DNA of 64,000 bases from Cyanobium sp. NIES-981 (lineage in GTDB: Bacteria; Cyanobacteriota; Cyanobacteriia; PCC-6307; Cyanobiaceae), in the NCBI GenBank assembly GCA_943371215.1, contig CALRUA020000003.1, positions 160,456-224,455 on the forward strand, read 5' to 3'. Position numbers and translations under genes: made by a program. The notes beneath the pieces are model-generated. The model was given only the letters and a program-made list of their open reading frames with translations, had not been told where the DNA came from and ran no database searches. Below are positions 5,651 to 15,056 of this stretch, one piece after another; position 1 is the stretch's first letter; each line of letters starts with the position of its first letter.

Positions 5651-5946
5651 GGCCTGGTGACATCAGGGCAGGGTGAAGCCCGAGGTGTTCAGGTGCTTGA
5701 GATCCAGCAGCACAACCGTGAGCCAACCCAGCAGGGCCAACCCTCCGATCGCCCCGAGGGCAACCAGCAAGGCGGTGAGCGCCGACCGTGGGGACCCGTT
5801 GTCGTTCGCCACGCCCGTGCCCTGTAGATAGCGGATCCTCCCACGCCTGCAGGTTGGCGTCTGCCGACACGGCGCCGGGTGGGTGTGCAGCACTACAGCG
5901 TTTCGTCTGCGCAGCTCGTACAACGGCGCCACACCGGGGAGTTGCC

Positions 5947-6141
5947 ATGACCTCCGACCAAGCCGCCCAACTGATCGACGACACCCTGGATCGGGTGCAT
6001 CAGCGCCTGCTGGAGCTGGAAGCGGGGCAGCAGCCATGGGCCCATCGCGCCCTTGCCGAGGAGTTCCGCGAATGGCGTCATCCCGTGGGTGGCCACATCG
6101 ATCTGATGGTGTGTCCGGGCTTCCCATCCGGTGGCAGTTGA
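5947..6141 (+). CDS. Hypothetical small protein (64 aa)
   Basis: ATG-initiated ORF 'MTSDQAAQLIDDTLDRVHQRLLELEAG...', ending 30 nt upstream of mnmE on the same strand. I recognise no family, so this rests on ORF evidence only. Confidence 0.3.
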   Translation: MTSDQAAQLIDDTLDRVHQRLLELEAGQQPWAHRALAEEFREWRHPVGGHIDLMVCPGFPSGGS

Positions 6142-6170: not shown

Positions 6171-7526
6171 TTGATTGAGGACACCATCGCGGCGGTTGCC
6201 ACGGCCGTTGCAGCCGGTGAAGGCAGCGTGGCAATCGTGCGGATATCGGGGCCTGCAGCCGCGGCTATCGGGCAGGGCCTGTTTGTGGCCCCCGGCCATC
6301 AGCCCTGGCACAGCCATCGGGTGCTCTATGGCCACGTGGTGGATCCCGCCACGGCGGAACGGGTGGATGAGGCCCTGCTGCTGTGGATGCAGGCCCCGCG
6401 CAGTTACACCCGTGAGGATGTGGTGGAGCTCCACTGCCACGGCGGCCTGGTGGCGGTGCAGCGGGTGCTGGAGCTGGTGCTGGCGGCCGGAGCCCGTCGG
6501 GCCGAGCCCGGGGAGTTCAGCCAGCGGGCTTTTCTCAACGGCCGGCTCGACCTCACCCGTGCCGAGGCGATCAGCGAGATGATCACCGCCCGCAGCCGCC
6601 GGGCCGCCCAGCTGGCCATGGCCGGCATTGATGGCGGCCTGCAGCAGCGCATCGGCGGCCTGCGGGAGCGGTTGCTGGACCAGTTGGCGGAGCTGGAGGC
6701 CCGGGTGGATTTCGAGGAGGATCTGCCCCCTCTCGATGGCACCGCGGTCGTGGCGGAGCTTGAGGCGGTGCGGGCTGCGCTGGAGCAGCTGGTGGCGGAG
6801 GCCCGCCAGGGGGAGCTGCTGCGCGATGGCCTGCGGGTAGCGATCGTGGGCCGCCCCAACGTGGGCAAATCGAGCCTGCTCAACCTGCTCAGCCGCCGCG
6901 AGCGGGCGATCGTGACCGACCTGCCCGGCACCACCCGTGACCTGCTCGAGAGCGAGCTGGTGCTCGACGGCGTGCCGCTCACCCTGCTCGACACCGCTGG
7001 CATCCGCCCCACCAGCGACCGGGTGGAGCAACTGGGCATCGAGCGCTCGCGCCAGGCCTTGGCGGCGGCCGATGTGGTGCTGCTGCTGTTTGACCTCTCC
7101 CTGGGCTGGACGCCGGACGATGAGCAGCTGCGCCAGCTGGTGCCCGAGGGGGCCGTTCTGCTGGTGGCCGGCAACAAGGCGGATTTGGCTGGAGCTGATC
7201 TCGCCCCCGTGATGCCGCCCCATGTGGCCTTCAGCGCCCTCACTGGCGAGGGCCGCGATCAGCTGGTGGCGGAGCTGTTGCGCCGCTGTGGCGCCGGCCC
7301 CTTGGAGGGGGTGCAGGTGGCCCTCAATGTCCGCCAGCGGGATCTGGCAGCGGCGGCGGCGATGAGCCTGGGGGCCTCGCTTGAGGCGGCCGAACAGCAG
7401 CTGCCCTGGGATTTCTGGACGATTGATCTGCGGGCCGCCGTGCGCTCCCTCGGCGAGATCACGGGTGAGGAGGTGACTGAAGCGGTGCTGGATCGGGTGT
7501 TTGCCCGCTTCTGTATTGGCAAATAG
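6171..7526 (+). CDS. mnmE: tRNA uridine-5-carboxymethylaminomethyl modification GTPase MnmE (TrmE)
   Basis: 'DTIAAVATA' N-terminus, G-domain motifs 'GRPNVGKSSLLN', 'DTAGIR' and 'NKADL', and the diagnostic C-terminal 'CIGK'. TTG start. Confidence 0.93.
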   Translation: MIEDTIAAVATAVAAGEGSVAIVRISGPAAAAIGQGLFVAPGHQPWHSHRVLYGHVVDPATAERVDEALLLWMQAPRSYTREDVVELHCHGGLVAVQRVLELVLAAGARRAEPGEFSQRAFLNGRLDLTRAEAISEMITARSRRAAQLAMAGIDGGLQQRIGGLRERLLDQLAELEARVDFEEDLPPLDGTAVVAELEAVRAALEQLVAEARQGELLRDGLRVAIVGRPNVGKSSLLNLLSRRERAIVTDLPGTTRDLLESELVLDGVPLTLLDTAGIRPTSDRVEQLGIERSRQALAAADVVLLLFDLSLGWTPDDEQLRQLVPEGAVLLVAGNKADLAGADLAPVMPPHVAFSALTGEGRDQLVAELLRRCGAGPLEGVQVALNVRQRDLAAAAAMSLGASLEAAEQQLPWDFWTIDLRAAVRSLGEITGEEVTEAVLDRVFARFCIGK

Positions 7527-8988
7527 CCGAGCGTCCTGGGCCCAGCCTGGCGGCCAGGAATACCAGGGCCATCACGGCGTAGCCCAGGGCCCAGGGCCTG
7601 CCCACCCCCCAGCCCAATTGCAGCACGGTGTCGGAGCTAGTGAACTGCCAGGCGTGGATCACGCCGAACCAGGCCAGCACCGCTGCGATGGCAGCGCAGG
7701 CTGCCGCCGCCAGCAACCGGGCTTCGATCAGGTACACCAGCATGCCGGCCAGCAGCATGGCCGCGATGATCTGGCCCTGCTCCAGGGCAAAGGCTCCGGC
7801 TGCCCACACATCGGCCTGGGCCAGGGGCTGGAGCAGGGCTGGACCAAACGGGTGCGTGGCGGTGCCGCTGCCGCCGGCCCGCAGCCCCGCCTTGAGCATC
7901 AGTGATCCCCAGCCCGCCAGCCCGGGGAGCAGGCCCAGGGCCACGGCTGGAGCATGGCGCAGCGGGGTGGCCTGGAAGGCCTGGGCGGCGATCACCAGGC
8001 CGATGTAGAGCACGATGGCCATGCCCGCTTCGATCGGCACCAGCTGGCCGATCACCCCAAACAGCCCCAGTAGGCAGGCGGCTCCCATCACGAGGCCGTT
8101 GAGCCAGGAGTAGCCGATGCGGGCGCCCATCGCCTTCCAGCCGGGATGGCCGATGTAGAGGGTTGTGGGGAAACAGGATCCCAGAGAGGCAGCGGCCAGG
8201 GTGCCGAGGCCGTTGATCAGCATGGAGCTCCGAACCGGGTAGCGATCGCCTGCGGCCTCGGCGCTCTCCAGGTTCTGGAGGGAGCCGATCACGTTGAACA
8301 GTCCCATGGGCACGATCACCCCCAGCCATGGCAGCAGCTGGCTGCGGGCCTGCCACAGGGCCTCCAGCTGCAGCTGCGGCAGATGCAGGCCAATCAGAGC
8401 AGTGCTGCTCTGCCAGGCCACCGGGTTCAGGCGGATTAGGCCGGTGGCCCAGGCCAGCACGACGCCAAGCACGACGGCCACCAGGCCGGCGGGTACGGGC
8501 CAGCGCACAGGGGTGTAGTAGCCCACCAGAATCACGGCCAGCACGGCTAGCCCAACCACGGGATGCGCGTAGGTGCGCAGCAGGAACCCCAGGGCGATGT
8601 AGCCCAGGGCAATCCCCGCGAGCGTGGAAAGCAGTGCAGCTCGCGGTAACCAGCGCCTCAGGGCGTTGGCCACGAAGGCTCCAGCCGCTTCGATCAGCCC
8701 TGATCCCAGGCACGCGATCAGCCCCGCTTGCCAGGAGAGGGTCACGGCGTCGGCTTCATTCAGGCCCCGGCCCAGGGCGGCCAGTTTCACCGGCAGCATC
8801 ACCAGAAACACGTAGGCGAACAGACTCACCGTGTTGATGCCGTAGGGAAGGGCGGTGCGGTCATCGCGCCCCTCCCGCCTGGCCAGTTGAAAGGCCTGGC
8901 GGGCGTAGGCCAGGTTGCCCACCACCAGGCTGATGCCCGTGGCCGGCAGGATCGTGCCGAACACCAGGCTGTCGGGGTACCCGAGCAC
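7459..8988 (-). CDS. Multi-pass permease, xanthine/uracil/vitamin C (NCS2/AzgA-like) superfamily
   Basis: About 12 hydrophobic segments and an 'ALPYGINT' motif. 8988 is the first canonical start (GTG). The frame stays open upstream and encodes 'KLISQSTNARPQPRWWVAGDLDGVLGLGLDNLIQILLIVGL', which looks like the real N-terminus and first TM helix. A possible CTG start lies at 9123 (see findings). Confidence 0.8.
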   Translation of the reverse strand: MLGYPDSLVFGTILPATGISLVVGNLAYARQAFQLARREGRDDRTALPYGINTVSLFAYVFLVMLPVKLAALGRGLNEADAVTLSWQAGLIACLGSGLIEAAGAFVANALRRWLPRAALLSTLAGIALGYIALGFLLRTYAHPVVGLAVLAVILVGYYTPVRWPVPAGLVAVVLGVVLAWATGLIRLNPVAWQSSTALIGLHLPQLQLEALWQARSQLLPWLGVIVPMGLFNVIGSLQNLESAEAAGDRYPVRSSMLINGLGTLAAASLGSCFPTTLYIGHPGWKAMGARIGYSWLNGLVMGAACLLGLFGVIGQLVPIEAGMAIVLYIGLVIAAQAFQATPLRHAPAVALGLLPGLAGWGSLMLKAGLRAGGSGTATHPFGPALLQPLAQADVWAAGAFALEQGQIIAAMLLAGMLVYLIEARLLAAAACAAIAAVLAWFGVIHAWQFTSSDTVLQLGWGVGRPWALGYAVMALVFLAARLGPGRSAICQYRSGQTPDPAPLQSPPHP

Positions 8989-9119: not shown

Positions 9120-9608
9120 TCAGCCGCCGTAGTTCAGGGATGAATGGTGAAGCACGATCCGCACACTGCCATCCGTTTCCCTCACAAATGTCCAGGTCTT
9201 GTCAACGCTGGTGACGCTGCCTGTGGCATCGGTGAAGATCACATTCCCCATCGTGGTGGCCGAGGAACCATCGAGCTGAATCACCTGATTCACAATTCTG
9301 CAGGAGCGCCAGGGTTTGATGGCAAAACCCTTGTCTTGTGGGAAGTTCGGATTGTTGCCAACAAAGTAAGCAAGCGCGCCCTCGCGGGTGGTGCGAAAGG
9401 TCTGCTCCCCTGAGGCCAAGGTGGGCTTGAAAGCCACAGGTCCGTATTGGTAGCCGTAGGCTTGATCGATCACCTGGGCAGCGGTTGCCTTGGCCTTGGC
9501 GATGCCTCCCTTGGAGTAATCGGAGCTGATTTGCAGCAGGGCTTTGCACCAGCCTTCCTGGGCCTGGAGCACCTGGTTGTCGTATCGGGCCGGCCACGGC
9601 AGCTCCAT
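9120..9608 (-). CDS. NTF2-like fold protein (DUF4440 / CaMKII-association-domain-like)
   Basis: 162 aa with no signal peptide. The C-terminal 'WTFVRETDGSVRIVLHHSSL' resembles the W-x-I-x-HHSS ending of the bacterial CaMKII-AD/DUF4440 family. The assignment is from memory of that family. GC is visibly lower than in neighbouring genes. Confidence 0.6.
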   Translation of the reverse strand: MELPWPARYDNQVLQAQEGWCKALLQISSDYSKGGIAKAKATAAQVIDQAYGYQYGPVAFKPTLASGEQTFRTTREGALAYFVGNNPNFPQDKGFAIKPWRSCRIVNQVIQLDGSSATTMGNVIFTDATGSVTSVDKTWTFVRETDGSVRIVLHHSSLNYGG

Positions 9609-9645: not shown

Positions 9646-10503
9646 ATGACTATCGCTTGCCTGCCCGTCACTCCCCAGCTGGAGCAACACCTGCGCGCCT
9701 GGCTGGCGGAAGATCTGGGCCGCGGCGACCTCACGGCGGCCGCCCTGGCCGGCTGCACCGGCAGGGCCCATTGGTTGGCGAAAGCTGATGGGGTGTTCTG
9801 CGGCGGTGTGCTGGTGGAGCCGCTGTTCCACCTGCTGGATCCAGGCGTGCAGTTACGCCTGCTCGTGGCCGATGGCGAGCCGGTGGTAGCCGGCCAGCGG
9901 CTGCTGGAGCTGGAGGGCCCGGCTGCGGCTCTGGTGGCCGGCGAGCGCACCGCCCTGAACCTGGCCATGCGGCTCTCCGGCATCGCTACCGCCACGGCGG
10001 CACTGGTGGCGGCTCTGGCGGGCACGGGTGTGGACTTGGCCGACACCCGTAAAACCAGCCCCGGCTTGCGGGTGCTGGAGAAGTACGCGGTGCGCTGCGG
10101 TGGTGGCCTCAACCATCGGCTAGGCCTGGATGACGCCGCCATGCTCAAGGAGAACCACCTGGCCTGGGCGGGGGGGGTTGCTGCCGCGATTGCGGCGGTG
10201 CGGGCCCAGGCGCCCTGGCCAGCGACGGTGATCGTGGAGGCGGAGACGGCGGAGGAGGCGGTGGCGGCGGTGCTCGCCGGCGCCGATGGGGTGCTGCTCG
10301 ACGAATTCCTCCCCGGTGAGTTACTCGCATTGGTGCCCCAGTTGCGGGCGTTGGCCCAGGGGCGGCAGTTGGTGCTGGAGGCCTCTGGGGTTCAACCCGA
10401 CCAGCTGCGGGCTTACGCGGCCACGGGCATTGATCTGATCTCCACCAGTGCGCCGATCACCCGCAGCGTTTGGCTTGATCTGAGCATGCGCTTTGCGGCT
10501 TGA
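9646..10503 (+). CDS. nadC: Nicotinate-nucleotide pyrophosphorylase (quinolinate phosphoribosyltransferase)
   Basis: 'AEDLGRGDLT', 'GERTALNLAMRLSGIAT' and 'DTRKTSPGLRVLEKYAVRCGGGLNHRLGL'. Start set at ATG 9646. Confidence 0.9.
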   Translation: MTIACLPVTPQLEQHLRAWLAEDLGRGDLTAAALAGCTGRAHWLAKADGVFCGGVLVEPLFHLLDPGVQLRLLVADGEPVVAGQRLLELEGPAAALVAGERTALNLAMRLSGIATATAALVAALAGTGVDLADTRKTSPGLRVLEKYAVRCGGGLNHRLGLDDAAMLKENHLAWAGGVAAAIAAVRAQAPWPATVIVEAETAEEAVAAVLAGADGVLLDEFLPGELLALVPQLRALAQGRQLVLEASGVQPDQLRAYAATGIDLISTSAPITRSVWLDLSMRFAA

Positions 10504-10537
10504 GTCGGCGCGTTGGCAGTGGGGCCTGCGGTCTGCA

Positions 10538-10551
10538 TACTGCGATCAGTA
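10538..10551. promoter_or_regulatory. 14-bp palindrome TACTG-CGAT-CAGTA in the nadC/binding-protein spacer (candidate operator)
   Basis: Perfect 5+4+5 dyad read directly from the sequence. It sits 15-28 nt upstream of the GTG at 10566, in the AT-richest part of the 62-nt spacer. Confidence 0.2.
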
Positions 10552-10565
10552 GACATCGAGGCTGA

Positions 10566-11516
10566 GTGGCTGCACAACTCCTCACTACCGGATCGAGGCC
10601 CTGGCGACGGGTTGCGGCAGGCCTCGGAGCCTTGGGCATCCTGACGCTCATGCCGGCGGCGGCTCAGGCTGAGGGCACTGTGCAGCGGGCGGCGCGCACC
10701 GGCCAGCTCGTCCTGAGCGGCTTGGCCGATGTGCCCCCCCTCGTGGTGACAACTCCCCAGGGGCAACCCAGTGGCTACGGCCTCTTGGTGGCCGATCGCA
10801 TCGCGGCCGAACTCTCCCGTGCCGTGGGTAAGCCGGTGACGGTGCGCTTTGCGCCGGTGGGTAATCCCGCCAGCCTGGTGGGCAGCATTACGAAGGGCCA
10901 GGCGGATCTCGCCTGCGGCTTTCCGTTCAGCTGGGAGCTGGACATGCAGGTGGACTTTTCATTGCCAATCGGGGTTTCCGGGTTGAGGTTGCTGGCGCCG
11001 GCCGGTCGTTTCGATGGCAGCCCTGTAGCCCTGGCCGGCCGGAAGATCGGGGTGGTGCGCCAATCGTTGGGTGAGACCGAGCTGAAAGGCATGCAGCCCA
11101 ACGCTACGGCGGTTGCCTTTGACAACCTTCAGGCGGCGGTGGCGGCCTTAAAGGCTGGAAACGTTGACGGCGTGGTCGGTGACACCATCGTGCTGGCCGG
11201 TTTGGTGCGTCAACAGGGTTTGAAAGGCTTGGCCTTGACCCCCGATTTCCCCTACGAGGCCTACGCGGTGAGCTGCGTGCTGGCCGAGAATGATTCCAGC
11301 TTCCGCAATCTGGTCAACCTGGCGATCGCCCGGCTGTTGCAGGGCTACCTCGACGGCCAGTCGGACACGGTCGCCGCGGTGAACCGTTGGCTGGGGCCGG
11401 GCAGCGCCGTGGGTCTGCCCGAAGCCACGATCCGCACCAGCTTCGAGGCGGTGTTGTTGGGGGTTGAGACCATCCGTCCGATTTCGGAAGACCAGGCCGC
11501 TCCCAACGCTCGCTAA
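10566..11516 (+). CDS. Orphan extracellular solute-binding-like protein, family 3 (amino-acid-type SBP fold)
   Basis: Leader 'GSRPWRRVAAGLGALGILTLMPAAAQA' (contains RR). SBP_bac_3-like blocks: 'GYGLLVADRIAAEL', 'DLACGFPFSWELDMQVDFSLP', 'LAGRKIGVVRQSLGE' and 'LKAGNVDGVVGDTIVL'. No permease or ATPase gene is adjacent. Confidence 0.8.
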   Translation: MAAQLLTTGSRPWRRVAAGLGALGILTLMPAAAQAEGTVQRAARTGQLVLSGLADVPPLVVTTPQGQPSGYGLLVADRIAAELSRAVGKPVTVRFAPVGNPASLVGSITKGQADLACGFPFSWELDMQVDFSLPIGVSGLRLLAPAGRFDGSPVALAGRKIGVVRQSLGETELKGMQPNATAVAFDNLQAAVAALKAGNVDGVVGDTIVLAGLVRQQGLKGLALTPDFPYEAYAVSCVLAENDSSFRNLVNLAIARLLQGYLDGQSDTVAAVNRWLGPGSAVGLPEATIRTSFEAVLLGVETIRPISEDQAAPNAR

Positions 11517-11549
11517 CCGGTTCGCTGATTCCCCTCCTCCGTTGCTGAC

Positions 11550-11948
11550 ATGGCGTTGTTCAACCGCTCCCATCTGTTTGGCCTGTTGCTGCTGGTCTCC
11601 CTGCCGCTCGATGGGGCGGCTGCCTTGGCCCTGGCCAGCGTCCAGGCCCCCCCCGCGAGCCCAAGCATCGAGGAACGGCTGAGCCGGATTGCGGCGGCCG
11701 TGCAGGAGCGTGAGGGCTCGCTGGGAGTGGCTGAGGGCCCAGCAGGTGTTGCCGACGATGCCCTCTCCTACGTGTTCGTGAACGGCTCCGGGCTGGGTTG
11801 GGGCAACGGTGGTTTCAACAATGGCGGCTTCTACAACGGCGGATTTAATAACGGCGGTTTCACGAACGGCGGCTTCTACAACGGGGGCTTCCGCAACGGC
11901 GGTTTCCGCAATGGCGGCTTCTTCAACGGCGGCCGCTACTGGCGCTGA
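11550..11948 (+). CDS. Secreted Gly/Asn/Phe-rich pentapeptide-repeat protein, putative radical SAM substrate (RiPP-like precursor)
   Basis: 132 aa. It has a Sec-type leader ('MALFNRSHLFGLLLLVSLPLDGAAALALASVQA'), an acidic helical spacer, then 'WGNGGFNNGGFYNGGFNNGGFTNGGFYNGGFRNGGFRNGGFFNGGRYWR'. No Cys. The stop shares TGATG with the radical SAM start. Confidence 0.85.
   Translation: MALFNRSHLFGLLLLVSLPLDGAAALALASVQAPPASPSIEERLSRIAAAVQEREGSLGVAEGPAGVADDALSYVFVNGSGLGWGNGGFNNGGFYNGGFNNGGFTNGGFYNGGFRNGGFRNGGFFNGGRYWR
11802..11933 (+). repeat. 15-nt-period coding repeat (aaY ggN ggN ttY NNN) x ~9, encoding x-N-G-G-F pentads
   Basis: Read directly: aacggtggtttcaac / aatggcggcttctac / aacggcggatttaat / aacggcggtttcacg / aacggcggcttctac / aacgggggcttccgc / aacggcggtttccgc / aatggcggcttcttc / aacggcggc. 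The units differ mostly at synonymous positions. Confidence 0.9.
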
Positions 11949-13141
11949 TGCCTGCTCCGCTAGCTGACGTGACTGCGGAGGTCCGCCAGGTCTATGGGCC
12001 TGTGAGGCTGTTGGTGGTGCAACCCACCCCCTACTGCAACCTCGATTGCGACTACTGCTACTTGCCTGATCGGGGCGATCGCGGTCGGCTGTCGTTTGAG
12101 GTTCTGGAGGTTGCACTCGAGCGGGTGCTGGATAGCCCCTACTTCGGGGGGGAGTTCACTCTGCTTTGGCATGCGGGCGAACCGCTCATGGTGCCGATCG
12201 CCTTTTACGACGAAGCCACGGAGCGGATTCATCGGCTGTTGGAACGACGCGGCCTGCCCCCCGGCACGATCGTGCAGTCGCTTCAGACCAACGCCACGGT
12301 GATCAACGCCGCTTGGTGCGACTGCTTCACGCGCAACGGCATCCACGTGGGCGTGAGCATGGATGGCCCTGCCTTTCTGCACGATGCCCACCGAGTCACC
12401 CGCACCGGCATGCCCACCCATGCCGCCGTTATGCGTGGCATCAGCTGGTTGGTGCGGCGGGGACTTCCCTTTCAGGTGATCTGCGTGCTCACCGCCGATG
12501 CCCTTGACCACGCCGATGCCATCGCCGACTTCTTCCTCCAGCACGGCATCACCGAGGTGGGCTTCAACATGGAGGAGACGGAGGGGTCGAATAGCCGCTC
12601 CAGCCTCGATGCCGGCGGCGCCGGGCAGATAGCCCTGGAGCAGCGCTACCGGGCGTTCATGGCACGGCTTTGGCAGCGCAGTCGCGAGCTGTCCGGACGC
12701 CTCCGCATTCGCGAGTTCGACGGCATTGCCAGCCTGGCCTGTAGTCAGGCGCGCATGGTTCAAACCGACATGAACACGCCCTTCGTGATCGTCAATGTCG
12801 ATGCCCGTGGCCAGGTGTCCACCTTCGATCCCGAATTGCTGTCGGTCAAGACGGCTAAGTACGGCGACTTCTCCTTTGGTAACGTGCTTGTCGACAGCCT
12901 CGAAGCTTTGGCCGGCACCGACAAGTTTCGTCGGGTGGCCGCGGAGATGCGGGCGGGGGTTGAGCTGTGCCGCGCTAGCTGTGAGCACTTCGGGCTTTGT
13001 GGTGGTGGCACCGGCAGCAACAAGTATTGGGAGCACGGCCGCTTCGACTGCACCCAAACTCAGCACTGCCGCTACCGCATCCAGCTGGTGGCCGACGTGG
13101 TGCTGGAGGGTCTGGAGCATGAGCTGGGCCTTAGCGCCTAA
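11948..13141 (+). CDS. Radical SAM enzyme with Cys-rich SPASM/twitch-like C-terminal domain (peptide-modifying maturase type)
   Basis: 'VVQPTPYCNLDCDYCYL' (CX3CX2C at aa 30-37), 'LLWHAGEPL' (GGE-like SAM motif), 'FGNVL', and C-terminal Cys at aa 265, 341, 345, 351, 368 and 374, including 'CRASCEHFGLCGGG'. No signal peptide or TM helix. Confidence 0.9.
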   Translation: MPAPLADVTAEVRQVYGPVRLLVVQPTPYCNLDCDYCYLPDRGDRGRLSFEVLEVALERVLDSPYFGGEFTLLWHAGEPLMVPIAFYDEATERIHRLLERRGLPPGTIVQSLQTNATVINAAWCDCFTRNGIHVGVSMDGPAFLHDAHRVTRTGMPTHAAVMRGISWLVRRGLPFQVICVLTADALDHADAIADFFLQHGITEVGFNMEETEGSNSRSSLDAGGAGQIALEQRYRAFMARLWQRSRELSGRLRIREFDGIASLACSQARMVQTDMNTPFVIVNVDARGQVSTFDPELLSVKTAKYGDFSFGNVLVDSLEALAGTDKFRRVAAEMRAGVELCRASCEHFGLCGGGTGSNKYWEHGRFDCTQTQHCRYRIQLVADVVLEGLEHELGLSA

Positions 13142-13211: not shown

Positions 13212-15056
13212 ATGCTCCGCATCGCCCAAACCCTGAACGGCCAGCTGCGTGCGGCTATGGAACGGGCCTTCCCCGAGGCGGCGCACCAGGCTCACGCGGG
13301 TGGGCAGCCCCTCGATCCCCAGCTGGCGCCGGCCTCGAAGCCGGAATTCGGGGATTTCCAGGCCAATGGCGCTCTGCCCTTGGCCAAGCCCCTGGGGCAG
13401 CCGCCCCGAGCCATCGCCACGGCGATCGTGGAGCAGCTTGCGGCCGATCCGGCCTTTGATCAGCTCTGCGAAGCGCCCCAGATCGCCGGGCCCGGCTTCA
13501 TCAACCTCACCCTGCGGCCCGAGCGGCTGGCGGCTGAGCTTCAGGCCCGGCTGGGGGATCCGCGGCTGGGGGTGCCCAGCATGGTGGAGGAGGCCGCGGC
13601 GGCGGGGGAGTCCCTGGCCCCGGTGATCGTGGACTTCTCCAGCCCCAACATCGCCAAGGAGATGCACGTGGGACACCTGCGCTCCACGATCATTGGCGAT
13701 TCCCTGGCCCGGGTGCTGGAGTTTCGCGGCCACCCGGTGCTGCGGCTCAACCATGTGGGCGATTGGGGCACCCAGTTCGGGATGCTGATCACCCACCTCA
13801 AGCAGGTGGCTCCCGAGGCCCTCACCACCGCCGATGCGGTGGATCTAGGCGATCTGGTGGCCTTCTACCGCCAGGCCAAGGCCCGCTTCGACGACGACGA
13901 GGCCTTCCAGACCACTTCCCGGGAGGAAGTGGTGAAGTTGCAGAGCGGCGATCCCATCAGCCGCAAGGCCTGGCAGCTGCTCTGTGATCAGAGCCGCCGT
14001 GAATTCCAGAAGATCTACGACCGCCTCGACATCCGCCTCAGCGAGCGCGGCGAATCGTTTTACAACCCCTACCTGGAGGGAGTGGTAGCCGATCTGGATA
14101 CCTCCGGGTTGCTGGTCACCGACGATGGCGCCCGTTGCGTGTTCCTCGAGGGGGTCAGTGGCAAGGACGGAAAACCTTTGCCGGTGATCGTGCAGAAGAG
14201 GGATGGCGGTTTCAACTACGCCACCACCGATCTGGCCGCCATTCGCTACCGCTTCGGCTCAGCTCCCGCTGGGGACGGCGCCCGGCGGGTGATCTATGTG
14301 ACCGATGCGGGCCAGGCCAATCACTTCGCCGGCGTGTTCCAGGTGGCCCGCAGGGCCGGTTGGATCCCCGCCGATGGCCGCCTCGAGCACGTGCCCTTTG
14401 GCCTGGTGCAGGGCGAGGACGGCAAGAAGCTGAAAACCCGGGCTGGCGACACGGTGCGGCTGCGGGATCTGCTGGATGAGGCGGTGGAGCGGGCCGAGGC
14501 CGACCTGCAACGGCGCTTGGCGGAGGAGGAGCGGACGGAAGACGAGGCCTTCATCCAGCACGTGGCCACCACCGTGGGTCTGGCCGCTGTGAAGTACGCC
14601 GATCTCAGCCAGAACCGGATCACCAATTACCAGTTCAGTTTTGATCGGATGCTGGCGTTGCAGGGGAATACCGCTCCCTACTTGCTCTATGCCGTGGTGC
14701 GCATCGCTGGCATTGCCCGTAAGGGTGGAAACCTGGAGGCTGGTGGCGCTGAGGCAGCTGGATCCGGAGGCCAAGCCGCCCTCACCTTCACGGAACCGCA
14801 GGAATGGGCCCTGGTACGGGAACTGCTCAAGCTCGATGGCGTGATCGCCGAGGTGGAGGAGGAGTTACTGCCCAATCGTCTCTGCACCTACCTGTTCGAG
14901 CTGAGCCAGGTGTTCAACCGCTTCTACGACCAAGTGCCGGTGCTCAAGGCCGAAGAGTCTGCCCGCTCCTCCCGCCTGGCCCTCTGCCGCCTCACTGCCG
15001 ACACCCTCAGGCTGGGGCTGGGCCTGCTCGGCATCCCCACCCTGGAGCGGATGTGA
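13212..15056 (+). CDS. argS: Arginine--tRNA ligase
   Basis: Class I HIGH motif 'EMHVGHLRS' and a DALR anticodon-binding C-terminus ending 'IPTLERM'. Confidence 0.95.

Follow-up and report, generated by a model that had tools for sequence, protein, structure and literature searches.

A predicted GRRM-type triceptide cassette between nadC and argS in Cyanobium sp. NIES-981

Introduction

What might a binding protein without a transporter, a small Gly-rich repeat protein and a radical S-adenosylmethionine (SAM) enzyme do together between two housekeeping genes of a picocyanobacterium? The question is raised by three genes, grrP, grrA and grrM, in a stretch of 64,000 nucleotides from Cyanobium sp. 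NIES-981 (contig CALRUA020000003.1, positions 160,456 to 224,455), which we call the window and to whose first letter all coordinates refer. An earlier note on this DNA had described the genes as a co-directional trio between nadC and argS and had named the GRRM (Gly-rich repeat / radical SAM maturase) families as a match. The open reading frames (ORFs) and the family models for both flanking genes agree with that layout:

10566..11516, + strand: grrP, extracellular substrate-binding-like orphan protein (GTG start, 316 aa; TIGR04262, PF00497)
11550..11948, + strand: grrA, Gly-rich repeat precursor, GrrA/OscA1 family (ATG start, 132 aa; TIGR04260)
11948..13141, + strand: grrM, cyclophane-forming radical SAM peptide maturase, GrrM/OscB family (ATG start, 397 aa; TIGR04261, PF04055)

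The family, the annotation and the chemistry of the GRRM system are already known, and the window adds no new kind of system. The families were defined by comparative genomics, the NCBI pipeline names them automatically and a relative of the enzyme has been characterised heterologously. What keeps its value is the combination of an apparently exported Gly-rich protein, predicted to be stapled by a radical SAM enzyme, with an orphan binding protein at a fixed core-genome position, in a large clade of picocyanobacteria that matter ecologically in fresh and brackish water. To this we add a candidate leader helix in GrrA, a conserved signal-like GrrA N-terminus measured against GrrP as a control, and the lack of a conserved protease or exporter. 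Further additions are the duplication of the cassette as a unit, the confinement of GrrP, within a wider enzyme family, to its cyanobacterial branch, the syntenic core-genome site, and six C-terminal Cys in GrrM, four of them invariant. These additions narrow the experiments needed on the native product and on the role of GrrP.

Results and Discussion

The locus belongs to the GRRM families

Family membership was assigned with NCBIfam/TIGRFAM models at their curated trusted cut-offs, and with Pfam. All three proteins pass their GRRM model, with E-values from 1e-20 to 1e-166. GrrM scores 553.8 against a cut-off of 310 on TIGR04261 ('cyclophane-forming radical SAM/SPASM peptide maturase GrrM/OscB'), and the alignment spans profile positions 1-362 of 363; this model corresponds to IPR026357. 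GrrA reaches 71.8 bits against 31 on TIGR04260 over residues 1-126, a model named 'GrrA/OscA1 family cyclophane-containing rSAM-modified RiPP' (a peptide made by the ribosome and modified after translation), and GrrP reaches 240.8 against 190 on TIGR04262 ('extracellular substrate binding-like orphan protein GrrP'). Pfam recognises Radical_SAM (PF04055) in GrrM with 46.8 against a cut-off of 29.5, and SBP_bac_3 (PF00497) in GrrP with 33.1 against 26.4 bits, which bears out the earlier description of the first gene as similar to family-3 substrate-binding proteins (SBPs). No second TIGR04260-type ORF or grrA paralogue was found in the 64-kb window.

The nearest public proteins are 95-99% identical and come from Synechococcus sp. 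HJ21-Hayes and Cyanobium spp.; HJ21-Hayes is the nearest public genome (97% at the amino acid level) and GRRM names have already been assigned there. The source names read 'GRRM system radical SAM/SPASM domain protein', 'rSAM-associated Gly-rich repeat protein' and 'orphan protein GrrP', while JGI names GrrP homologues 'polar amino acid transport system substrate-binding protein'. The GRRM identity that the earlier note had put forward is therefore upheld by the trusted cut-offs of all three models and by the public annotation of homologues. At 67% GC and with these nearest proteins, the window is from a freshwater picocyanobacterium of the Synechococcus/Cyanobium type. Judged from these sequence comparisons, the locus is almost certainly a GRRM triceptide system. 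The triceptide class is defined by omega1-X2-X3 motifs in the precursor, in which an aromatic residue and any second residue precede the cross-link acceptor (PMC11499958), and GrrA carries nine omega-x-N-G-G pentads.

Conservation of the trio in related genomes

A survey with one genome per GTDB species gave 253 GrrM relatives, of which the best 80, all picocyanobacteria, were analysed. Seventy-five of these loci include DNA upstream of grrM, and in every one of them grrP, grrA and grrM stand in the same order. As for the flanks, nadC lies 5' of the trio in 67/80 loci and argS 3' of it in 64/80. In the window the grrA stop and the grrM start share the letters TGATG, an overlap of 1 nt: the A that ends the stop codon also opens the grrM ATG. 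When the window is counted with its 75 relatives, 72 of 76 loci have the grrA stop and the grrM start overlapping or at most 20 nt apart, and three of the four exceptions are computational artefacts. The coupled precursor-maturase layout and the linkage of the repeat gene to the enzyme that the earlier note had proposed are thus conserved features. Its statement that the cassette lacks a protease, an exporter and an RRE (RiPP recognition element) protein also stands: none was found at the locus, the flanks are housekeeping genes, and no fourth gene for a protease, exporter or tailoring enzyme is conserved in the 75 loci. The inserts between grrM and argS in relatives are heterogeneous (cupin, methyltransferase-like, HAMP sensor, HicB-like).

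Two loci are particularly informative. A metagenome-assembled genome (L073, 3048-8622) carries the tandem arrangement nadC-P1-A1-M1-P2-A2-M2-argS, which shows that the unit of duplication is the whole trio; its two GrrA copies differ in repeat content. The second, L083, is a contig of 40% GC, as compared with 67% in the window, with cyanobacterial-type flanks (SLH, DUF1400/chlorophyllase) unlike nadC-argS. It nevertheless keeps the order GrrP (TIGR04262, 280 bits), GrrA (TIGR04260, 56 bits) and GrrM. A chance adjacency of the three genes is ruled out by the 75/75 loci, the L073 duplication and the L083 trio. As an observation on its own, L083 has 141 nt between grrA and grrM (5860-6000) with an inverted repeat, CCTAAAGGA ... 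TCCTTTAGG, at the place where picocyanobacteria have the stop-start overlap; from its sequence, this may be a hairpin that sets the stoichiometry of precursor and enzyme.

How far does the family extend beyond this clade? A search with 50%-identity representatives at E<=1e-30 returned 800 clusters, and the ten nearest representatives outside the clade were checked. They are 43-51% identical to GrrM, the nearest one found being 51% identical, and all ten lie above the TIGR04261 cut-off, including a 679-aa fusion protein of Actinomadura, so that the enzyme model has to be regarded as broad. Besides L083, three of the nearest out-clade members (L082, L084 and L086), which are TIGR04261-positive, have Trp/Phe-rich precursors without a TIGR04260 match. 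In L082 the precursor (2396-2704) has 102 aa, a signal-like N-terminus and WGN/WHN/FHN repeats, and there is no obvious partner. L084 (5001-9484) has an MNIO enzyme, a GAF protein, an S8 peptidase and TauD, and L086 (1970-6128) has a W-rich ORF of 72 aa with an OppA-like SBP_bac_5 gene two genes upstream. The TIGR04261-positive enzymes outside cyanobacteria that were examined are without GrrP. Since L083 keeps the trio and the other three loci have different precursors and partners, the GRRM system in its strict three-gene form is a cyanobacterial branch within a wider family of maturases.

GrrA and its repeats

The precursor can be divided into five parts:

11550..11636, + strand: signal-peptide-like N-terminus, aa 1-29, read from the sequence
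11664..11711, + strand: leader helix motif, aa 39-54, SIEERLSRIAAAVQER, candidate GrrM recognition element
11754..11798, + strand: pre-core segment, aa 69-83, DDALSYVFVNGSGLG, column identity 0.47
11799..11933, + strand: core of nine omega-x-N-G-G pentads, aa 84-128, predicted cyclophane sites
11934..11948, + strand: C-terminal tail RYWR and stop; tail types differ by clade (RYWR in the window, ...RNxW in others)

The Sec-type leader, the spacer and the nine aromatic-x-N-G-G pentads claimed earlier are all present, with exactly nine pentads at aa 84-128. One is WGNGG and eight are FxNGG, followed by RYWR, and a possible tenth motif, F76-V77-N78, can be read in the pre-core segment. Tandem Repeats Finder reports a 15-nt period with 8.7 copies in the grrA core and just 76% matches, and the pentad codons vary synonymously (GGC/GGT/GGA/GGG, TTC/TTT, AAC/AAT). 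This combination indicates that the repeat is maintained at the level of the peptide and is not a recent expansion of DNA. Among the 75 GrrA homologues, which hold 5-13 motifs per protein, position 1 of the motif is F in 79% and W in 20% (F/W 99%), position 3 is N in 99%, and position 2 varies freely, with R, Y, G and other residues. Conservation of aromatic-x-Asn with a free middle position is the pattern to be expected if the substrate rule of an enzyme is under selection.

The N-terminal half of GrrA has features of its own. The first 29 residues comprise an n-region with R6/H8, an h-region LFGLLLLVSLPL and A27-L28-A29 followed by S30, with a maximal Kyte-Doolittle hydropathy (nine-residue window) of 2.76 at aa 9-17. 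Conservation was measured as mean pairwise column identity per region, for GrrA over the 75 loci and for GrrP in the same genomes. It reaches 0.61 in the signal-like segment of GrrA, 0.63 in the helix at aa 39-54 and 0.78 in the repeats, and drops to 0.14-0.19 in the linkers. The signal peptide of GrrP has 0.27 against 0.59 in its mature part. The N-terminus and the helix of GrrA are hence conserved like a mature protein and unlike the GrrP signal peptide, and the difference between 0.61 and 0.27 points to a constraint that ordinary signal peptides lack. The distant L083, with a GrrM of just 51% identity, keeps the consensus of the helix, IEERLSRIAAAVQERE (IEERLxRIAAAVxERE), as LESRLAKIAATLKERE, and the helix is our candidate for the leader element that is recognised by GrrM.

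GrrM and its metal-binding motifs

Conservation of GrrM motifs was read in two sets of homologues (n=32 and n=70). Two cluster regions were delimited in the enzyme:

12035..12058, + strand: radical-SAM cluster motif C30-x3-C34-x2-C37 (CNLDCDYC), invariant in 32 and in 70 homologues
12968..13069, + strand: putative C-terminal auxiliary-cluster region C341-x3-C345-x5-C351-GGG...C368...C374, from Cys conservation and the alignment with ChlB

The cluster motif at aa 30-37, the HAGEPL sequence and the six C-terminal Cys listed in the earlier note were all located. HAGEPL (aa 75-80), a SAM-binding 'GGE-like' motif, is invariant in 32 homologues. The six Cys are residues 265, 341, 345, 351, 368 and 374; four of them (C341, C345, C351, C374) are invariant, and conservation is at least 80% for C265 and about 60% for C368. 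The region aligns with 'CQKCSVVEICGGG...YC' of ChlB. Its motif is CX3CX5C with the fourth Cys missing, as compared with CX2CX5CX3C and seven Cys in a canonical SPASM domain, which binds two auxiliary [4Fe-4S] clusters, and the Pfam SPASM model PF13186 gives no match to GrrM at E<=0.01. GrrM may accordingly carry either one or two such clusters. The label radical SAM/SPASM that the gene had been given therefore holds for the radical SAM core and for the fold, which matches SPASM enzymes, but not for the domain model or the canonical motif. Within the radical SAM core, W123-C124-D125-C126 (window 12317-12325) is invariant in all homologues examined and has no counterpart in the alignments with ChlB or with the anaerobic sulfatase-maturating enzyme (anSME). 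This Cys pair may supply the ligands that are missing from the incomplete SPASM motif. Only 29 residues precede the cluster motif, too few for an RRE domain.

AlphaFold2 (AF2) models of GrrP and GrrM were compared with PDB structures. The GrrM model (predicted local distance difference test score, pLDDT, 77; predicted template modelling score, pTM, 0.81) matches over its full length the folds of ChlB (9gm3/9gmc, TM-score 0.71-0.76), anSME (4k36-4k39, 0.65-0.73, a range that depends on chain and normalisation) and CteB (about 0.70).

Comparison with characterised maturases

The chemistry of the family is known from a relative. In E. coli, co-expression of OscB (IPR026357) and its precursor led to three-residue cyclophanes that link residue i to i+2, as seen by nuclear magnetic resonance (PMC11002830). 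The links run from Trp C7 to Asn/Asp Cbeta and from Phe C4 to Asn Cbeta and are credited there to Nguyen et al., Nat Chem 2020 (PMC11002830), so that the heterologous cyclophane study which the earlier note had mentioned does exist; PMC11851443 cites a further paper on OscB and Gly-rich precursors. OscA/OscB from Oscillatoriales share the NCBIfam maturase and precursor families with our locus, including a Gly-rich precursor with repeated aromatic-x-Asn motifs, and differ from the window with its single precursor, nine motifs and fixed nadC-argS position. The OscA/OscB triceptide system was reportedly characterised by Purushothaman et al. in 2024. The open-access papers searched contained no mention of GRRM, GrrP or the TIGR accessions, and a search of triceptide terms together with picocyanobacterial genera or GrrP returned nothing relevant from the open-access literature covered.

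ChlB is to our knowledge the only three-residue cyclophane-forming enzyme with a solved structure. It resembles GrrM in its full-length fold and shares the C-terminal motif C..C.....CGGG...C. It is a multiple-cyclophane synthase that binds the precursor leader directly, and the two entries (ChlB-ChlA, 9gm3/9gmc) are crystal structures of complexes with the leader region. The sequences, however, are far apart (only 57 bits, about 21% identity), and ChlB has no counterparts of C124/C126, C265 and C368 in the alignment. ChlB acts on YDR-type motifs, unlike the aromatic-x-Asn of the GrrM substrate, and belongs to fused rSAM/HExxH proteins.

By sequence the closest solved structure is anSME (79 bits). 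The anSME enzymes are cytoplasmic radical SAM proteins that modify signal-peptide-bearing sulfatases before export; their chemistry is the oxidation of Cys or Ser to formylglycine and makes no cross-link. They have a canonical SPASM domain with seven to eight Cys. Could grrM then encode an anSME, or a radical SAM enzyme of a cofactor pathway, with GrrA not being its substrate? The match to the solved structures, where anSME also ranks among the top folds, would speak for it. GrrM scores 141.9 against a cut-off of 349.45 on the anSME model TIGR03942, far from its 553.8 on TIGR04261, and the GRRM models came out best in the profile search that the earlier note had suggested. Moreover, there is no sulfatase gene nearby, GrrA contains no C/S-x-P-x-R sulfatase-type motif, and the coupling of precursor and maturase is conserved. 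The curated scores and the gene context effectively refute the anSME or cofactor-enzyme identity.

Other cyclophane maturases were compared as well. AmcB, YhhB, FxsB, XyeB, DarE and DynA belong to the same radical SAM clade and form aromatic-to-aliphatic cross-links on ribosomal peptides, with other precursors and partners. The second-best model on GrrM is AmcB (NF041718, 301.4 against 425); like AmcB, DynA (122.5/450), YhhB (119/445), FxsB (101/370), DarE (89/650) and XyeB (51/450) are below cut-off. A darobactin- or dynobactin-type maturase was rejected on the DarE and DynA scores.

GrrP, an orphan binding protein

GrrP begins with one annotated feature:

10566..10670, + strand: signal peptide, aa 1-35, predicted cleavage A33-Q34-A35 / E36, read from the sequence

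The low conservation of this segment is that of ordinary signal peptides. The earlier note had pointed to an RR-containing leader, and W13-R14-R15 is indeed present, but the RR is not conserved and its context does not fit the Tat consensus; Tat export of GrrP was therefore dismissed. The AF2 model (pLDDT 78, below 50 over aa 1-34) has the class-II amino-acid-binding-protein fold, with 4zv2 as best PDB match (E 1.7e-17). GrrP shares this fold, the hinge architecture and the 'VVGD' Asp with polar-amino-acid binding proteins (AncQR 4zv1/4zv2; LAO/HisJ, TIGR01096). The Asp contacts the ligand and is invariant across GrrP. The Arg that binds the alpha-carboxylate in the family (AncQR 'TITEER') aligns with Leu125 in the window (10938-10940) and is Arg in most other GrrP, including that of L083. 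GrrP differs from these binding proteins by a conserved C-terminal extension of about 50 aa, by Leu125 in place of Arg and by a score of 58 against 256.35 on TIGR01096, and it has no cognate permease or ATPase: no ABC transporter partner adjoins it, and transporter genes are not conserved in the 75 loci.

Leu or Val at position 125 coincides with the RYWR tail of GrrA in 14/14 cases, all from a single clade, which makes the association statistically weak; GrrA tails ending in W occur together with R, Q, A, G, S, H or W at this position. Because the co-variation amounts to one clade and effectively to one event, we do not take it as evidence that GrrP reads the GrrA C-terminus.

Proposed mechanism and alternatives

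Family membership and the published OscB biochemistry make it very likely that GrrM forms cyclophanes on the GrrA motifs. GrrM would bind a [4Fe-4S] cluster through C30/C34/C37 and cleave SAM, and the resulting 5'-deoxyadenosyl radical would take a Cbeta hydrogen from the Asn in motif position 3. The Asn carbon radical would then add to the aromatic ring two positions upstream (Phe C4, Trp C7), and re-aromatisation would leave a three-residue cyclophane and a mass loss of 2 Da per ring. GrrA would in this way be turned into a chain of small rigid rings, up to 9-10 in number, spaced by Gly-Gly. With no RRE available, GrrM probably reads the GrrA leader directly, through the helix IEERLSRIAAAVQERE and possibly through the conserved N-terminus. 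GRRM identity and chemistry taken together are highly probable in our judgement.

Later steps are less secure. Modification would take place in the cytoplasm on the unfolded pre-protein, in analogy to anSME acting on sulfatases before their export. The Sec-type N-terminus might subsequently export the product through the inner membrane, with cleavage after A27-L28-A29, yielding a species of about 10.6 kDa without the need for a dedicated protease or exporter. The shape of the N-terminus gives a slight preference to Sec export of modified GrrA. It is conceivable, though we hold it only tentatively, that GrrP, which has its own signal peptide, an amino-acid-binding fold and no transporter partner, acts as a receptor or chaperone that binds modified GrrA in the periplasm or cell envelope. 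We favour an endogenous role in the envelope or in physiology over an accessory antibiotic, because the cassette lies in the syntenic core genome. One may go further and imagine GRRM as a 'RiPP-protein' envelope module and not as a diffusible RiPP with a cleaved leader. A GrrA of about 13.6 kDa would be stapled in the cytoplasm with 9-10 cyclophanes, its N-terminus and helix would serve first for recognition by GrrM and then as Sec signal, and the product of about 10.6 kDa would be held by GrrP in the periplasm. In this complete form the proposal is rather doubtful. If it were true, the core-genome position and the unit-wise duplication would reflect a housekeeping envelope or sensing role in freshwater picocyanobacteria.

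Several points weigh against this scheme of stapling, export and capture. The auxiliary-cluster region of GrrM is non-canonical, with six Cys and no Pfam SPASM match, and the 'subfamily' model TIGR04261 is so broad that it lets even actinobacterial fusions through. The case for export comes from the shape of the GrrA N-terminus, whose unusual conservation could also mean that it is purely a leader for GrrM and was never a signal peptide. GrrP keeps the ligand Asp and, in most family members, the Arg; such a site would be more in keeping with a small amino-acid-like ligand than with GrrA. Finally, the host is an oxygenic phototroph, and one has to ask when a radical SAM enzyme is active in it.

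The chemistry could also be the same and its purpose another one. Exported GrrA might be degraded by unspecific proteolysis to a diffusible bioactive peptide (antimicrobial, allelopathic or signalling), with GrrP providing immunity or sensing. Darobactin and dynobactin, the products of related radical SAM enzymes, are antibiotics, and the DarE and DynA models give 89-122 bits on GrrM. The core is basic (isoelectric point 9.5 for aa 69-132) and rich in Gly, Phe and Arg, a composition that resembles glycine-rich antimicrobial peptides, and most GrrA homologues end in an aromatic residue (...RNxW). GrrA and GrrP also evolve faster than the enzyme, with a median identity to the window of 57-58% against 72% for GrrM. 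Yet a protease, an exporter or an immunity-type transporter is missing from all 75 loci, the cassette occupies a fixed core-genome position and not an island, and bioactivity of a native GRRM product was not found in the open-access literature searched. We consider such a peptide unlikely, while giving it some weight. It is far less probable that GrrA is a membrane-anchored or periplasmic structural protein that works unmodified, with GrrM acting elsewhere or on few motifs. Gly-rich aromatic repeats do occur in structural proteins, the N-terminus could be an uncleaved anchor, and the repeat number ranges from 5 to 13 without gene loss. A near-absolute F/W in position 1 and N in position 3 with a free position 2 is, however, what a substrate rule predicts and not what a structural repeat predicts. 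The tight stop-start overlap with grrM argues in the same direction, as does the family biochemistry with multiple cyclophanes on Gly-rich precursors (PMC11002830, PMC11851443).

A last alternative concerns GrrP, which might be an ordinary polar-amino-acid binding protein next to an unrelated two-gene RiPP cassette of grrA and grrM. Its SBP_bac_3 fold with Arg/Gln/Glu-binding proteins as best structural matches, the invariant ligand Asp together with the Arg of most family members, and the transport-system annotation by JGI would fit. Against this, GrrP is recognised by its own model with 240.8 and reaches just 58 on the LAO-type model, and it has no adjoining permease or ATPase gene in any locus. 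It adjoins grrA in 75/75 loci, was co-duplicated in L073 and is kept in L083 despite the different flanks, and in the window the alpha-carboxylate Arg is replaced by Leu. An independent GrrP is accordingly very improbable.

Flanking genes and other features of the window

The remaining annotated features of the interval are the following:

9646..10503, + strand: nadC flank (TIGR00078, 272.9 against a cut-off of 198.4)
10513..10541, + strand: promoter-like site TTGGCA-17-CATACT in the nadC-grrP spacer, 25 nt 5' of the grrP start, from a consensus scan
13212..15056, + strand: argS flank (TIGR00456, 502.2 against a cut-off of 261.65)

The consensus scan returned 2 promoter sites where 0.6 were expected, which is weak evidence, and no terminator-like site was found inside the grrP-grrA-grrM trio. 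The nadC ORF as listed starts at TTG 9544 and overlaps a divergent ORF of 162 aa. Since the TIGR00078 model aligns from residue 50 only, ATG 9646 is the more likely start, which leaves a divergent intergenic region of about 38 nt.

That 162-aa ORF (9120-9608, - strand) scores 214.5 bits on NF047901, metal-independent carbonic anhydrase, below the cut-off of 350; the alignment covers profile positions 53-203 of 205, and Pfam gives no match. Of the 80 related loci, just two (L002, L021) have it at this place. A further ORF, of 509 aa (7459-8988, - strand), has about 11 hydrophobic segments and a strong coding signature (GC at third codon positions, GC3, 0.84). It is found with 81-90% identity 5' of nadC in 11 related loci, a twelfth match spanning 39 aa only. 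Neither Pfam nor NCBIfam recognises it, even at E<=1, and it is an unclassified membrane protein or transporter. In the whole 64-kb window no tRNA genes and no Rfam families at gathering score were found. The annotated ORFs all lie in the first 21 kb or so and are mainly housekeeping genes, among them an ABC-F ATPase, RelA/SpoT, MnmE, a HisC-like aminotransferase, diacylglycerol (DAG) kinase, YbeY and GshB.

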